Shown: one piece after another, positions 13,940 to 18,946 of the stretch
Position numbering within the stretch: the stretch's first letter is position 1
Layout: every line of letters starts with the position of its first letter
NCBI GenBank assembly: GCA_963762115.1
Contig: CAVXJH010000006.1
Location: 288,001 to 352,000, forward strand
Reading direction: 5' to 3'
Length of the DNA: 64,000 nt
DNA from: Candidatus Babeliales bacterium
GTDB taxonomy: Bacteria; Babelota; Babeliae; Babelales; JANWKD01
Notes under the pieces: generated by a model
Told to the model about the DNA's origin: nothing
Databases searched by the model: none
Seen by the model: only the letters and a program-made list of their open reading frames with translations
Position numbers and translations under genes: made by a program

Positions 13940-15328
13940 CTACTCTTTACCCACATTTAGTTCTTTAAATAAAAGATAAGCTTGTGTAATGGCTTCTAGC
14001 CGAAATAATCCCTGCCACAAAACTTTTGCACCAGGATCTTTATCGTTTTTCCTGCCAAGAAAACCTCCTAATTTTGCTATCATTTGAGTTGCTTCTTTAA
14101 CAGAAAAAGATTTGGGGGGCAATGTAAGAGTTTTATGATGCGTGCAATATAACGCATCAGCTTCATCGGTTGTAAGAATTAAATTACATGGGGCATCAGG
14201 TTTAATTCTTGCAAGATAAGTGATATAAATTAAACGCCAGGCAGCAATTGAGTAAACAGCCAAGGTTCTTTTTAGGTTATCAACCGATTCCATTTGAAAT
14301 TTTTCTATGCGACAACCTTCTTTTAAAATATAATGATAGCGTTCAATGAGCCAACGTTTTGAGTAAAGGGCAATAAGCTTTTCAGCTTCTTCCAATGATT
14401 GAACTTTAATCGTAGTAATAAGTCGCCATACTATTGGATCATTTACTGAGTTGTCATATTCTATTTCTTGCACATAAATCGCTGTTAAATGTATGGTTGG
14501 TAATTTTTCATTTTTTCGATTTAAAGGAGAACAAATTTCGACTTCTTTGACTCTAATCGCTAACTTTGCAGTTCTCTTAGAATGAGTTTTTGTACGTTCT
14601 AATTCTTTCGTTATAACGCCTAATACTGATTGTTTTTCCAGCAATTCAAAGAGACGCTCTTCTTCGTTCTGTATATTTCTATTTTGTACAAGATGAATGA
14701 GCAAATCACTGTTTAACCGTCTTTTTGCGATCAATAAATCATAAATATCGGCACCACCATCACCTATAAATAAATAGCTTTTATTAATAGGAAGCTTTTT
14801 TTCTATTTGATAAATTGATTCAATCCAATTATAAGATTCTTTTTCCTTTGTGGGCAACCTTAGCTTATGTTTTTTTTTGCCAAAATCTTCTTTATTACGT
14901 ATCCAATACTTTTGATTTATTAGCCCTAATGGAATAAAATTTTCACTAAATACATACGTATTTTGAACTTTTATTCCAAGTGAATTTTTTGTATTAGAAA
15001 GAGTTCCTAACCCTGAAGTTTTTTTAAGATTTTTAAAAGATGCATCCATGCCATCGCTAACAATAATGACTTTGCCTTCAACACTTTCAGCTCTTTCTGC
15101 GGTCGCTTGATAATGTCCTGCGAGAATATCCTGTTCATCAATTTCTGTTGTGGCAAGAAAACGATAAGCACCTTTTGCTTGTGCATTTTCTCCGTTGCAA
15201 GCTTGTAAAATGCTTGCTGATGGGCTATCGGCAACGGCCTCTAGAAGTATTCTAACTCTTTCATTTCTGCGTTTATCTTTTAATGACATACGATTAGTCT
15301 CATTTGCTGCCCACAATTCTTTAATCAT
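13940..15328 (-). CDS. IS4-family transposase (Tn5/IS50-like)
   Basis: DKRRNER, KGAYRFL, KESYNW, IGDGGADIY, YSKRWLIERYHYILKEGC (YREK motif), IAKLGGFLGRKNDKDPG; the stop codon lies in the terminal IR. Confidence 0.95.
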   Translation of the reverse strand: MIKELWAANETNRMSLKDKRRNERVRILLEAVADSPSASILQACNGENAQAKGAYRFLATTEIDEQDILAGHYQATAERAESVEGKVIIVSDGMDASFKNLKKTSGLGTLSNTKNSLGIKVQNTYVFSENFIPLGLINQKYWIRNKEDFGKKKHKLRLPTKEKESYNWIESIYQIEKKLPINKSYLFIGDGGADIYDLLIAKRRLNSDLLIHLVQNRNIQNEEERLFELLEKQSVLGVITKELERTKTHSKRTAKLAIRVKEVEICSPLNRKNEKLPTIHLTAIYVQEIEYDNSVNDPIVWRLITTIKVQSLEEAEKLIALYSKRWLIERYHYILKEGCRIEKFQMESVDNLKRTLAVYSIAAWRLIYITYLARIKPDAPCNLILTTDEADALYCTHHKTLTLPPKSFSVKEATQMIAKLGGFLGRKNDKDPGAKVLWQGLFRLEAITQAYLLFKELNVGKE

Positions 15329-15401
15329 TTTTTACTTTTCTTTTTTTGATATATTAACTCTGTATCTCGTTAATTATAGTAAAAATGTGGGTAAAGAGTA
15401 G
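13940..15401 (-). mobile_element. Complete IS4-family (IS50/Tn5-like) insertion sequence
   Basis: Perfect 19-bp terminal inverted repeats CTACTCTTTACCCACATTT (13940-13958 and 15383-15401); direct repeat CGTATATG at 13932-13939 and 15402-15409 (10 bp GCGTATATGC if the ends are drawn 1 nt inward). Confidence 0.93.
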
Positions 15402-15569
15402 CGTATATGCACCACACATCATGATGCTCCGCATCATTCTTTCGGGTGCACGACGCACTACCGGACTAACATATATTTATAAATTGTCATTCTGAGCCCT
15501 GCATAGCTGTTTACTCCGCCATAGTGATTGTGTTAAAAGTCAAATATTTTTTAATAAAGCTAAACAATA

Positions 15570-16511
15570 TTAAGCTTTACATAATTCACCTTTTTTTAGT
15601 AAAGAATTAGCAATCACAATAAGTTTATGCATAATAGCTACGATAGCTATTTTAAAAGGTTTTTTAGAAGTTATTAAACGATCGTAAAGTTCCTTTAATG
15701 GGAGATGATATTTAATAGTTGTTAATGCATACATATAAAGCATATTTCTTGGAATAGTTCTTCCACCTCTGATGAATTTTTTACCCTTATAACTTCCACT
15801 TTCATTCTCATAAGGACAAACACCAATGAGTGCTGATACTTTTTTATTACTTATTTGACCAAGTTCAGGAACGAATGATAATAATGTTGCAGCTGAAGTT
15901 TTGCCTATTCCTGGAATTGACTCCAAAATTTTTGATTTTGTATTTAATTTTTCATCTTGCTGAATTAAATCTTGTATCTTTAAATCAATTGATTTGATTT
16001 CGCACTCTAAGATTTTGATAAATTTCTTTATACTTGATGCATATAATGCATGAGATGGATGTTTAGATCTTGTTTTTTCGGCAACTAAAAATTTTACCAA
16101 GTCATTTTTACGATTGACCAAAGCTTGTAATTTTTCTTGATTTTCGCTTTTGTTCATTATCTCATAATCAGGAGAATTTTTAGAAGCAAATTCAGCAATT
16201 TTTCGAGCATCAATTTTATCCGTTTTGCTTTTGCAGCCACTAGCAACAATATAGCCTTTTATTCTTCTTGGATCGATGATCCAAAGATAATAACAATTTT
16301 TTTTTAATATTCGAGCAAGTAATTTTTCATACCCACCAGTTGCTTCGCATGCAATTTGTTCGATATCATATTTAACTAATTCTTTAATGATCTCCGTTAT
16401 TCCAACTTCTGAGTTTGATACTTTTAAAGATTTTCCTATTGGATGGATATAAACATCTAAAGTGTTTTTTGAAATATCGACACCTATAAATACTTTTGAT
16501 ATATTTTTCAT
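15570..16511 (-). CDS. IS110-family DEDD transposase/recombinase
   Basis: FIGVDISK, CEATGGYE, KTDKIDA (DEDD); SIPGIG; catalytic Ser loop ESGSYKG; IRGGR; AIMHKL. Confidence 0.96.
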   Translation of the reverse strand: MKNISKVFIGVDISKNTLDVYIHPIGKSLKVSNSEVGITEIIKELVKYDIEQIACEATGGYEKLLARILKKNCYYLWIIDPRRIKGYIVASGCKSKTDKIDARKIAEFASKNSPDYEIMNKSENQEKLQALVNRKNDLVKFLVAEKTRSKHPSHALYASSIKKFIKILECEIKSIDLKIQDLIQQDEKLNTKSKILESIPGIGKTSAATLLSFVPELGQISNKKVSALIGVCPYENESGSYKGKKFIRGGRTIPRNMLYMYALTTIKYHLPLKELYDRLITSKKPFKIAIVAIMHKLIVIANSLLKKGELCKA

Positions 16512-16515
16512 AAAT

Positions 16516-16660
16516 ACCTCTGGCTTGTAGACATGCGAGATCGTATGTACTTGATACGTCTCTAGTGATTGTTCGAGGTCATTTTTGTATAAGCTGATAG
16601 TCTCAAACTATGACACGGTCCTTTGAGACCAAGCTTGACACGAGATCTATCAGCTTCTCA
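16516..16660 (-). ncRNA. Putative bridge RNA core (target-binding and donor-binding loops); the true 5' end probably lies further upstream, toward about 16715
   Basis: Two stem/internal-loop/stem units (AAGCTGATAG...CTATCAGCTT and ACCTC...GAGGT). Their loops match the flanking target and the end-end junction. Confidence 0.82.
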
Positions 16661-17001
16661 AACAATTAATTTCAAAACAACTGATCATAAATTAACAAAA
16701 TTTAGCTTTAAAATCATTTTGATTTAACATACAAGCTTGCCAAGCCGGTAGGCATGGATAAGCGAAGGCTGGATTAGCGAAGCATGGGCGTAGGAATCCA
16801 GTTTATTTATAATTTTATCGAAATTATTTTATAGACTGGATCCTTACGCCATCGGCTCAGGATGACAGTTGTGATACTACGAAGTAGATTATATTAATCG
16901 CAAGTCATCGGATAAAATCAAAAATTTCCCCATTAGCAAAACTGGTGGAGGACTTTGAGCATGTAATGATCAAGTCCGACTTTTTTGCGTTAAGAGAGAT
17001 T

Positions 17002-17084
17002 ACTAAGAGATTCCTCTCTTAGTTGCCCTTGTATTGAATATATTGGGCACGCAATATATTCATGCTTGCCCGCATAGGGCCGAA
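17002..17084 (-). repeat. Structured repeat, copy B
   Basis: Reverse complement TTCGGCCCTATGCGGGCAAGCATGAATATATTGCGTGCCCAATATATTCAATACAAGGGCA aligns with 13841-13900. Confidence 0.75.
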
Positions 17085-17156
17085 GAATATTAAAAAATAA
17101 AAAGACTGAAACAAGGCAAAATAACTTAGCAACAAAAATTTAATTAAAAATGAAGA

Positions 17157-17516
17157 CTATAACTCAGTATATTTTGTTGATTTTCCCTTTGATTTTTCAA
17201 CAGAATATTTTTCAGCATTTAATGCCATTTTCTGTTCAATTGCTGTTGAGAGATCAATATTGTTTTCTGCGCAAAACATCAACACAAACACGGCGATATC
17301 CGCTACTTCATGTTCAATTTCTTGACGCTTTTTTTCTAGAACTTCAAATGATTGTGCTGCATCGGACCATAAAAAATGTTCCATAAGTTCTGCTGCTTCA
17401 ATAGCGATACCCATACTCATATTTTTGGGTGAATGGAATTGATTCCAATCTCGTTCATCTACAAATTTTTTAAGCTGTATTTTTAATGTTTCGAGAGTTG
17501 TTGTGTTATCTTGCAT
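17157..17516 (-). CDS. MazG-like nucleotide pyrophosphohydrolase (DCTPP1/dCTPase-like)
   Basis: FVDERDWNQFHSPKN, EAAELMEHFLW, HEVADI, KMALNAEKYSVEKSKG. Confidence 0.92.
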   Translation of the reverse strand: MQDNTTTLETLKIQLKKFVDERDWNQFHSPKNMSMGIAIEAAELMEHFLWSDAAQSFEVLEKKRQEIEHEVADIAVFVLMFCAENNIDLSTAIEQKMALNAEKYSVEKSKGKSTKYTEL

Positions 17517-17653
17517 GGCAAAGTCCAATTGTTATAATAGTTTTTTATTGTTAGTATAACACTTTTTTTTGAATATTTTACTTGTTTTTCTATTTTTGCA
17601 TTTGTTATTTTTTTAAAAATTATTGAAGGTAAGTAAAGGTAAGGGATTAAAAT

Positions 17654-18946
17654 ATGCAAACAAAAGTAAGTATTTATTATTTTTTTATTACGTTGTTTTT
17701 ATTTCCATCATTGGATGCCTATAACGCTGGAGCATTTCCCTATGCAGTGCATAAGGGTGAGATTTGGTTTTTATTAGGTGAAGATCCTCATCGGAAAAAT
17801 AATTGGACAGATTTTGGTGGTAAATCTGATCGTGCTGATAAGGATGATACGCGCTTTACAGCGGCACGTGAATTTGCAGAAGAGACTAATAATGTTTTTG
17901 GTCATACTCAAACAATGTATAAAAAATTGAGAGAAGAAGCTGGCTTTGGGTATAGAAATAAATATCGTATGTATTTAGTGCCAGTCGATTATAAGGATAT
18001 ACCAACTATTAAACGAGCGCAAAAGAATGATTTTGAAAAATCAGATTTTATATGGGTGCCTGCAGAAATTTTATTGGATACTGTGCAAAGGTCTCAAAAT
18101 GATCAAAATGTGTTTGTGAATTATGGTGGTAAAAATATACAAATTTTTCACCGGTTTGCTTGGATTTTAAGAGAATTTGATGAGGAAATTAGAAAGCAGA
18201 TTGGTTTGAGAGTTCATACGCCAGCAAAGAAACATCAAGTTATATCTTCTCAGGGTAAAAAAGCAACCGCAACATCTAGGGGGCAAAGCTATGAAGTTGA
18301 TTCTGTTTCCGTATTACCATTTGCATTTCATCAAGAGAAAATTTTTCTTTTATTGGGAAGTGAAGTTAGGGGTGCAAATTATAATCTTATGTATTCTGGT
18401 TTTGGTACGTTAGTTGATGATAATGCCTTTATTGAAGGAGTTTTTGATCCATTGATAACAGCAGGTTATGGCTTTCAGCGAACAGTGAGGGATGCTTTTG
18501 GGTCCGATAGCGCAGGGTATATTAGAATGGCTATTAAAAAAACAGGTAAAATTTCATATTATGATGGACTATTAAAGCATCTTATGTGTCTTGCAGAAAT
18601 TGAATATACCTTTATAGACTCAGCTAATAATCCTTGTCGATGGTTTGGCGCAGAAGATTTTTTAAGATGGATTAGACGCACTTCGTTTGATATTAATAAT
18701 TTTGATGATCCTGTCATGTATAATACCTTTGAAATATATCAACCTTTTGCAGCTGTTCTTAAAGAAGCTGCTGATGATGTGGAAAGAAGAATAAATGAGA
18801 CAAAAAATAAGCATTTAGCTGAGCAACAGCCAGCGCGAGCAAGAACAACGATACAGCCAAAACCTTTACAAGATGCATCATTGCAAAAAAGTTTGATGGA
18901 ATTGAATATGAAGCTAAATCAGTTGCAAAATGCTTTAAGATCGTGA
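17654..18946 (+). CDS. Secreted Nudix-fold protein with one intact and one degenerate Nudix domain
   Basis: Signal peptide; AGAFPY...FLLG...WTDFGG...TAAREFAEET; second repeat VSVLPF...FLLLG...YSGFG lacks the Glu residues; C-terminal leucine motif. Confidence 0.75.
   Translation: MQTKVSIYYFFITLFLFPSLDAYNAGAFPYAVHKGEIWFLLGEDPHRKNNWTDFGGKSDRADKDDTRFTAAREFAEETNNVFGHTQTMYKKLREEAGFGYRNKYRMYLVPVDYKDIPTIKRAQKNDFEKSDFIWVPAEILLDTVQRSQNDQNVFVNYGGKNIQIFHRFAWILREFDEEIRKQIGLRVHTPAKKHQVISSQGKKATATSRGQSYEVDSVSVLPFAFHQEKIFLLLGSEVRGANYNLMYSGFGTLVDDNAFIEGVFDPLITAGYGFQRTVRDAFGSDSAGYIRMAIKKTGKISYYDGLLKHLMCLAEIEYTFIDSANNPCRWFGAEDFLRWIRRTSFDINNFDDPVMYNTFEIYQPFAAVLKEAADDVERRINETKNKHLAEQQPARARTTIQPKPLQDASLQKSLMELNMKLNQLQNALRS

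Follow-up and report, generated by a model that had tools for sequence, protein, structure and literature searches.

A 64-kb stretch of a Candidatus Babeliales genome (the window, G000:C6:288001-352000; coordinates below are window positions unless given as G000:Cn) carries on its minus strand, at 15523..16735, an insertion sequence (IS) that is very probably a recently active, IS621-related member of the IS110 group, with a gene for a serine/DEDD bridge recombinase and a bridge RNA of about 200 nt in its left end. The IS621 bridge-recombinase architecture with a CT core, proposed in a first-pass annotation of this DNA, is supported by the protein domains, the catalytic residues, the anatomy of the ends, the guide loops and covariation. 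Across related elements the target guides covary with the flanking DNA, which strongly supports the bridge-RNA reading, and the RNA has a secondary structure with compensatory changes. Transcription from the circle junction, circle formation, RNA-protein binding and the chemistry we infer from IS621.

Element boundaries, copies and recombinase

The element measures 1213 bp including both core dinucleotides, and the mobile unit, counting one CT, 1211 bp. Copy comparison and empty sites place the left core CT at 16734..16735 and the right core CT at 15523..15524 (both minus strand). In the genome (1.53 Mb in 7 contigs, 31-37% GC), BLAST found five full copies of the exact 1213-bp stretch and zero partial copies. 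All five have CT at both ends, lack long terminal inverted repeats and lose their similarity to each other at the CTs, while three empty paralogous sites hold a single CT. The copies are 99.8-100% identical and vary at only two positions of the element (297 and 1006); their first 224 nt, the RNA region, are the same in all five, and the reading frames are open throughout. Each motif that the first-pass annotation had placed on the minus strand was found where it had placed it, and the ends and CT core that it had reconstructed are fixed independently by the five copies and the three empty paralogous sites. The comparison it had suggested, of the flanks of other genomic copies, gave identical ends in all five and the same target in four of them.

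The non-coding left end (222 nt) contains the RNA region, and the right end is only 45 nt long (15525..15569, minus strand, delimited by sequence reading and relatives), carrying the left donor and a -35 box. Because of this long left end and short right end we assign the element to the IS110 group. Elements of the IS1111 group instead encode their RNA in a long right end and have subterminal inverted repeats of 7-17 bp, unlike the present one, whose guide loops lie in the left end and whose right end has 45 nt.

The recombinase gene (15570..16511, minus strand, 942 nt) encodes 313 amino acids with a DEDD RuvC-like domain, a coiled coil and a Tnp domain, as read from the open frame, Pfam and alignment with PDB sequences. 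Pfam PF01548 (DEDD_Tnp_IS110) matches residues 9-149 (E 5.2e-18; 65.7 bits, cut-off 29) and PF02371 (Transposase_20) residues 194-276 (E 1.8e-14); a protein atlas gives the same family name. Among PDB sequences it matches only two transposases, each over residues 8-308: that of IS621 (8wt6 and five further entries, E 1.3e-32) and that of ISCro4 (9t56, 1.9e-32). Residues D12, E56, D98, D101, S238 and G239 align with D11, E60, D102, D105, S241 and G242 of IS621 (numbering from PMC11208158, from which the PDB chain is offset by two residues) and are invariant in 46 relatives (alignment A1). The description of the protein as compact was overstated, as IS621 has 326 amino acids according to the same source. 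Its description as apparently intact holds for the open frame, both domains and all catalytic residues; codon 261 (window position 15730), however, reads TAT (Y) in the window copy alone and TGT (C) in the other four copies, and cysteine is found in 44 of the 46 aligned relatives.

The protein family is large: 1141 of 2892 candidate proteins match at E <= 1e-20, the nearest at 79% identity, and most lie on contigs of 1.1-2.5 kb. One relative (70% identity) is labelled by its source as a Candidatus Dependentiae bacterium. Four of 60 related genomes have a match at E <= 1e-30, and a separate scan of genome contigs gave one relative only. Among 1457 matching plasmid records there was no close relative, all being below 60% identity and the best at 39.9%.

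Guide loops, RNA fold and junction promoter

In published bridge RNAs, the 5' side of each internal loop copies the left target or donor together with the core, and the 3' side complements the core and the right target or donor (Durrant et al., PMC11208160). The left end described here can be read in the same way (all positions minus strand). In its target loop, the left target guide (LTG) TGTCAAGCT, consisting of TGTCAAG and the core CT (16632..16640), matches 8/9 positions of TGGCAAG-CT in the four main sites, and the right target guide (RTG) GTCATAG (16608..16614) pairs at 7/7 positions with CT-ATGGC, including one G:U, and the pairing is extendable by one nucleotide through G:U. In the donor loop, the left donor guide (LDG) ACAATCACT, consisting of ACAATCA and CT (16564..16572), is the same as the right end of the element at 9/9 positions (15531-15523), and the right donor guide (RDG) TACAAG (16524..16529) complements CT-TGTA at the left end at 6/6 positions. 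Further, two handshake guides can be located, defined in PMC11208158 as the dinucleotide that lies 3' of the core-binding AG in each right guide. They are UU in the target loop (16606..16607), with a first U able to pair with the A at donor position 7, and CC in the donor loop (16522..16523), whose first C pairs with target position 7 (G).

Ten distinct related elements were available for comparison: the window element, two types in the same-genus genome G001, one in genome G058 and six from metagenome contigs. They share their ends, with ...TTGACTTT[T/C]AACACAATCA-CT on the right and CT-TGTATGTTRAA on the left, and all ten have the same donor loop, with left guide ACAATCACT and right guide TACAAG. 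The target guides, by comparison, follow the flanks. For the nine elements with both flanks, we scored the pairing of non-core guide positions and permuted the assignment of guides to flanks exactly. The LTG pairs with its own flank at 49 of 63 positions, which 30 of 362,880 permutations equal, and the RTG at 43 of 45 positions (12 of 362,880); the non-cognate means are 3.5/7 and 2.3/5, respectively. With one member of each guide-sharing pair dropped, leaving seven elements, 10 of 5,040 permutations do as well for the LTG and 2 of 5,040 for the RTG. The tenth element (L044), for which only the right flank is present, pairs at 5/5 positions. Additionally, target position 7 finds its pairing partner in the first handshake nucleotide of the donor loop in nine of nine elements, eight times as C:G and once, in one of the G001 types (G001a), as a compensatory G:C; the second handshake nucleotide of this loop pairs in 3/9. 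In the target loop, the handshake U is able to pair with donor A7 and is invariant across the elements.

That these matches are due to chance or to the choice of register, given that the guides are short and that the LTG register was chosen for two elements, has a negligible probability in our judgement, since the RTG, which has no register freedom, pairs at the 43 of 45 positions given above and one 17-nt site is common to four of the five genomic copies.

RNAfold gives the left end z values of -3.3 (224 nt) and -3.1 (159 nt), and the minimum free energy (MFE) structure shows the first stem-loop, internal loop included, and of the second the inner hairpin. The target-binding stem-loop (16591..16656, minus strand), placed by folds and covariation, consists of an outer stem of 14 bp interrupted by one bulge, then an internal loop, and an inner hairpin of 5 bp. 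The donor-binding stem-loop (16516..16579, minus strand), placed by covariation, has an outer stem ACCUC/GAGGU, an internal loop and an inner 9-bp stem with a bulge; the 3' strand of its outer stem is also a Shine-Dalgarno-like GAGGU (16516..16520, minus strand), identified from sequence and alignment. Upstream of both, the MFE fold predicts a 5' stem-loop (16668..16716, minus strand) of poorly conserved sequence, falling in variable columns of alignment A2.

In this alignment of the ten elements, four helices with 33 pairs are formed at 96.4%, as against 30-41% when the 3' partners are slid. Helices 1 and 2, in the target loop, are paired at 97.9% and 94.0% with 3 compensatory pairs, and helices 3 and 4, in the donor loop, at 98.0% and 94.4% with 4 compensatory pairs in helix 4. 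Seven pairs are changed on both sides, and 0 of 500 shuffles reach the observed percentage paired or the covariation score; coming from a small alignment of related elements, these figures are supportive and are not to be read as a probability.

Both ends of the element also contribute to a putative promoter. The -35 half TTGACT lies in the right end (15538..15543, minus strand) and the -10 half TATGTT in the left end (16726..16731, minus strand), so that the promoter would be complete only at the right end-left end (RE-LE) junction of a circle, with a spacer of 13 + 2 (one CT) + 2 = 17 nt; its function is assigned by the precedent of IS621, for which Durrant et al. describe the same split arrangement and a 177-nt RNA transcribed from it. 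In the relatives, the right end is variable from the stop codon to TTGACT and invariant from TTGACT onward, and the -10 half is invariant in 10/10. The whole TTGACT-N17-TATGTT is kept in 10/10 relatives and matches at 9/12 positions, a match for which the chance density is similar (9 such sites against 7.5 +/- 2.4 in shuffles). These 9 sites, in the integrated copy, include a flank/IS hybrid TTGGCA-N16-CAAAAT; no terminator-like site was found there. By analogy, an RNA running from 6-8 nt after TATGTT to the start codon would be about 205-210 nt long.

The first-pass annotation had described both loops as we find them (LTG at 8/9, RTG with one G:U, LDG at 9/9 and TACAAG as the reverse complement of CTTGTA), and the covariation between target loop and flanks is now added. 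The check it had suggested, a fold of the left end, gave two stem-loops with internal loops, the second without its outer stem in the MFE structure. Of its proposal that circularisation creates the promoter TTGACT-N17-TATGTT, the sequence and the spacing stand, and both are conserved in 10/10 relatives, while the promoter match itself is no better than chance.

Taken together, these features suggest the following cycle. The element would leave as a circle, in which the RE-LE junction ACAATCA-CT-TGTATG assembles the promoter TTGACT-N17-TATGTT, and this promoter would drive the RNA and, downstream, the recombinase. The donor loop would hold the junction, with ACAAUCACU pairing to the bottom strand and UACAAG to the top strand, and the target loop would hold the chromosomal repeat described below via UGUCAAGCU and GUCAUAG. 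Recombinase tetramers would then exchange strands at the CT core, aided by one handshake pair per loop.

Target choice and competing explanations

Four of the five copies occupy one target, TTGGCAAG-CT-ATGGCGGA, with the core part TGGCAAG-CT-ATGGC. Their common flanks extend about 30 nt on the left and about 10 nt on the right and read ...CTTCGCTTATCCAYGCCT.C.GGCTTGGCAAG-CT-[IS]-CT-ATGGCGGA.... At the window element, the left half of this repeat, which resembles a repetitive extragenic palindrome (REP), lies at 16736..16768 (minus strand; ...CTTCGCTTATCCAYGCCT.C.GGCTTGGCAAG, found in four of five copies and in nine of ten near-match sites without the IS), and its right half at 15511..15522 (minus strand; ATGGCGGA..., from copy flanks and near-match sites). 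The REP-like family has a near-palindrome, GCTTG-G-CAAGC, immediately left of the core. No perfect empty copy of the reconstructed 17-nt site exists in the whole genome (0 at 0 mismatches). Ten genomic sites have 1-3 mismatches, and nine of these belong to the repeat family and in most cases read CT-ACGG or CT-TCGG where the target has CT-ATGG; the perfect-match members are all occupied and the variant members are empty.

The fifth copy (locus L005/L039, G000:C6:253967-255179, beyond the window) has other flanks, GTTGCCTTTG-CT and CT-ATGATGGA, and is nested in an IS3-type transposase gene. Joining these flanks in silico gives an open frame of 336 codons over the junction, whose C-terminal part is an rve_3 integrase core (6.4e-16), and three uninterrupted paralogues (C5:85590-85593, C3:348403-348406 and C3:198358-198361) read GCCTTTG-CT-ATGATGG with one CT. 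This comparison of filled and empty sites gives the 1211-bp insert and the CT core directly. This site scores 2 + 5: pairing is complete over the core and the right arm, and the left guide pairs at only 2/7 positions. A 2026 preprint (10.64898/2026.08.31.748434) uses the term half-match for such insertions, and states that RT-only events are not scorable for IS621 because the IS621 RTG is short. Judged by its sequence, the fifth copy is a natural right-arm-only half-match insertion. One of four identical half-match sites is filled, as compared with four of four full-match sites.

Guide pairing places the target among the best-scoring CT sites without singling it out. When all 148,942 CT sites in the genome were scored on the 12 non-core guide positions with wobble allowed, none reached 12/12, 26 scored 11/12 and 181 scored 10/12. 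The occupied target scores 11 (6 + 5) and is among the top 0.02% of CT sites.

Two further observations concern target sites. A structured target, as in ISPpu10, is unsupported, since the DNA fold of the empty variant site has z -1.5 and is equalled by 17 of 200 shuffles. The joint of 15502 to 16859 in one contig of a DNA sequencing run (13 other letters between, depth 2.6, 90-95% likeness) was considered as an empty site and rejected, because its flank is repetitive in its own right and the REP halves are absent as well. Separately, a variant about 95% alike on one soil metagenome contig (run X3, depth about 4) is changed in both target guides, at window positions 16611 and 16639. In the RTG, the RNA strand would have G for A, which would suit the CT-ACGGC repeat variant that is empty here; coming from a single low-depth contig, this is only a lead.

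Several observations weigh against an active bridge-RNA element. The enzyme of the window copy may be impaired by C261Y at its near-invariant residue. Position 3 of the LTG is mismatched (U-C) at each of the four main sites, and for the two G001 types (G001a and G001b) the LTG register was set by the analyst on the core-binding CT, which leaves a small degree of freedom that the RTG does not have. The pairing score of the occupied target is not unique: of the 26 sites at 11/12, five lie inside the IS copies, as antisense of the element's own target loop, and 21 are unoccupied, so that other determinants must contribute to target choice; extended RTG pairing or repeat context may add specificity. 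The outer stem of the donor loop is not formed in the MFE structure of nine of ten elements. No Rfam match was found over 15523-16735 at E up to 1, a negative whose weight depends on a bridge-RNA model in Rfam 15, the presence of which is not established; a permissive scan of 14000-18500 gave two weak matches only (ilvH, 25 bits; WsnRNA46, 24.1 bits), both outside the element and far below gathering scores. Finally, a search of sequencing runs found the sequence in four DNA runs and in no RNA run, and the contigs of three DNA runs show no circle junction.

Some of these points would also fit an element that is real but immobile, with the copies as a frozen burst and the left-end structure as a relic. 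Polymorphism, circle and RNA evidence are absent, the window copy carries C261Y, and every perfect target is already filled. Against this, the copies differ at no more than 2 of 1213 bases, with an identical RNA region and all frames open, and ten diverged relatives keep both the structure and the guide-flank matching, which shows that selection has continued. We regard a frozen burst as improbable.

Far less credible is an explanation in which the left-end structure does no more than regulate translation of the recombinase mRNA, comparable to the ISPpu9 5' untranslated region (5'-UTR), and the protein itself reads the REP-like repeat. It would account for the Shine-Dalgarno GAGG within the donor-loop outer stem, for the limitation of translation that 5'-UTR structure exerts in ISPpu9 (PMC8450116) and for the 21 unoccupied sites of equal score. 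The loops, however, change with the flanks while the proteins are 57-79% identical and the stems are fixed, and the roles of guide and regulator are not mutually exclusive.

A related candidate feature lies just upstream of the target stem-loop, in the conserved segment AUUGUUUGAG (16657..16666, minus strand), recognised from folds and alignment, which is complementary to CUCGAACAAU, the 5' strand of the donor loop. In MFE folds, 16666-16657 pairs with 16577-16568 (CUCGAACAAU, comprising the 5' strand of the outer stem and the first half of the LDG) and displaces the ACCUC/GAGGU stem; the two helices cannot coexist except as a pseudoknot. Nine of ten elements can form a 7-bp core of this alternative helix. 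Pairing amounts to 86% over the first eight of the helix's ten columns, and as the LDG never varies, changes are confined to one side. The MFE structure contains the alternative helix in 6/10 elements and the outer stem in 1/10, and in constrained folds the two alternatives lie within about 0.3-5 kcal/mol of each other in 9/10.

We also examined one representative each of nine IS110-group subfamilies, drawn from the window, metagenome loci and six plasmid records. The helix has 10 bp in the window element (2 of 500 shuffles as good), 11 bp in a Sphingobium element (1 of 500) and 9 bp in a GC-rich metagenome subfamily (38 of 500), in which the segment serves as 3' arm of the 5' stem-loop; in the other six representatives it is not above chance. 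As a family-wide feature the upstream anti-donor-loop helix is accordingly rejected, being absent in 6/9 representatives, and it appears to be lineage-specific, though unproven as such. One might imagine that the left-end transcript is a two-state RNA, either a working bridge RNA with translation blocked or an open ribosome site with the donor guide masked. We consider this rather unlikely; if true, one transcript would let the element balance guide and enzyme. Occlusion of the ribosome-binding site by 5'-UTR structure is known for ISPpu9 (PMC8450116), and among the 12 titles listed by a literature search for a switch of the present kind, none deals with one.

The GC-rich subfamily (loci L052, L086, L088 and L100, and about 35 other metagenome loci) is 31-38% identical to the 313-aa protein. 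Its left donor guide, ACCGTTGC[CT], precedes the start codon by about 60-75 nt, and its right end extends only about 10 nt past the stop codon.

The surroundings of the window element hold further repeats. A Tn5/IS4-type transposase gene adjoins it (13940-15328, minus strand, 462 aa, with Tnp_DNA_bind, DDE_Tnp_1 and Dimer_Tnp_Tn5), and the stretch of about 90 bp between this gene and the IS (15401-15492) recurs at at least 10 genomic places with 76-97% identity. On the other side, at 16787-16850 (minus strand), lies an inverted-repeat element, GGATCCAG...CTGGATTCC, with a weak Rfam match to Wolbachia sRNA 46 (24.1 bits, where the gathering score is 65.3; E 0.16). Next to it, the sequence at about 16841-16873 resembles the repeat CTGGATCC.TACG...CT-CAGGATGAC, which is the target of a related element in genome G001.

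Significance and comparison with known systems

The mechanism proposed here was described in 2024 and gains nothing new: published work already covers bridge RNAs and their loop code, the CT core, handshake guides and the junction promoter. What the elements offer is a natural data set, in which ten related elements combine one donor code with different target codes, including a compensatory handshake change, and which further includes the putative right-arm-only half-match insertion with three sister sites still empty. The orthologue family comes from AT-rich, uncultured, small-genome bacteria and could serve as an additional orthogonal recombinase/RNA pair. In the library that was searched, no paper combines 'Dependentiae' and 'IS110'; supplementary orthologue tables such as those of Durrant et al. 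may nevertheless include this family.

Bridge RNAs have been predicted in 85.7% of IS110-group elements, with covariation over thousands of pairs (PMC11208160). The closest well-known counterpart is IS621 of Escherichia coli (PDB 8wt6; 177-nt bridge RNA), which shares with the present element both protein domains, the five catalytic residues D/E/D/D/S, the CT core, a promoter (putative in the present element) split across the circle junction and a left end starting TGTAT. In both, a 5' stem-loop precedes the target and donor stem-loops in a long left end, the core forms part of the 9-nt left guides, and the insertion site is a repeated extragenic element. The proteins (326 aa in IS621 and 313 aa here) are related by local alignment only (E 1.3e-32). 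According to the published accounts, the IS621 left end is 191 bp long, as against 222 nt here, and its wild-type RTG pairs with 4 nt beyond the core, as against 5-6 nt here. The present element also differs in its donor, ACAATCA-CT, and in its AT-rich (34% GC), uncultured host; a segment 5' of the target stem-loop that could pair with the donor loop's 5' strand is described from the present element. The ISCro4 recombinase (PDB 9t56) is likewise a full-length homologue (E 1.9e-32), compared by protein alignment only.

Further parallels are found in ISPpu10 and ISPpu9, REP-targeting IS110-family elements of Pseudomonas putida, whose descriptions report, as here, multiple copies in one conserved intergenic repeat and, for ISPpu9, a long structured 5'-UTR that includes the ribosome-binding site. 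For ISPpu10 a target stem-loop is reported there as a second layer of specificity, whereas the empty site here folds no better than shuffles. The IS1111 group (seekRNA / bridge RNA), as described in PMC11208160, has the same recombinase family and RNA-guided logic as the element described here, but differs from it in carrying the RNA in a long right end and in its long subterminal inverted repeats.

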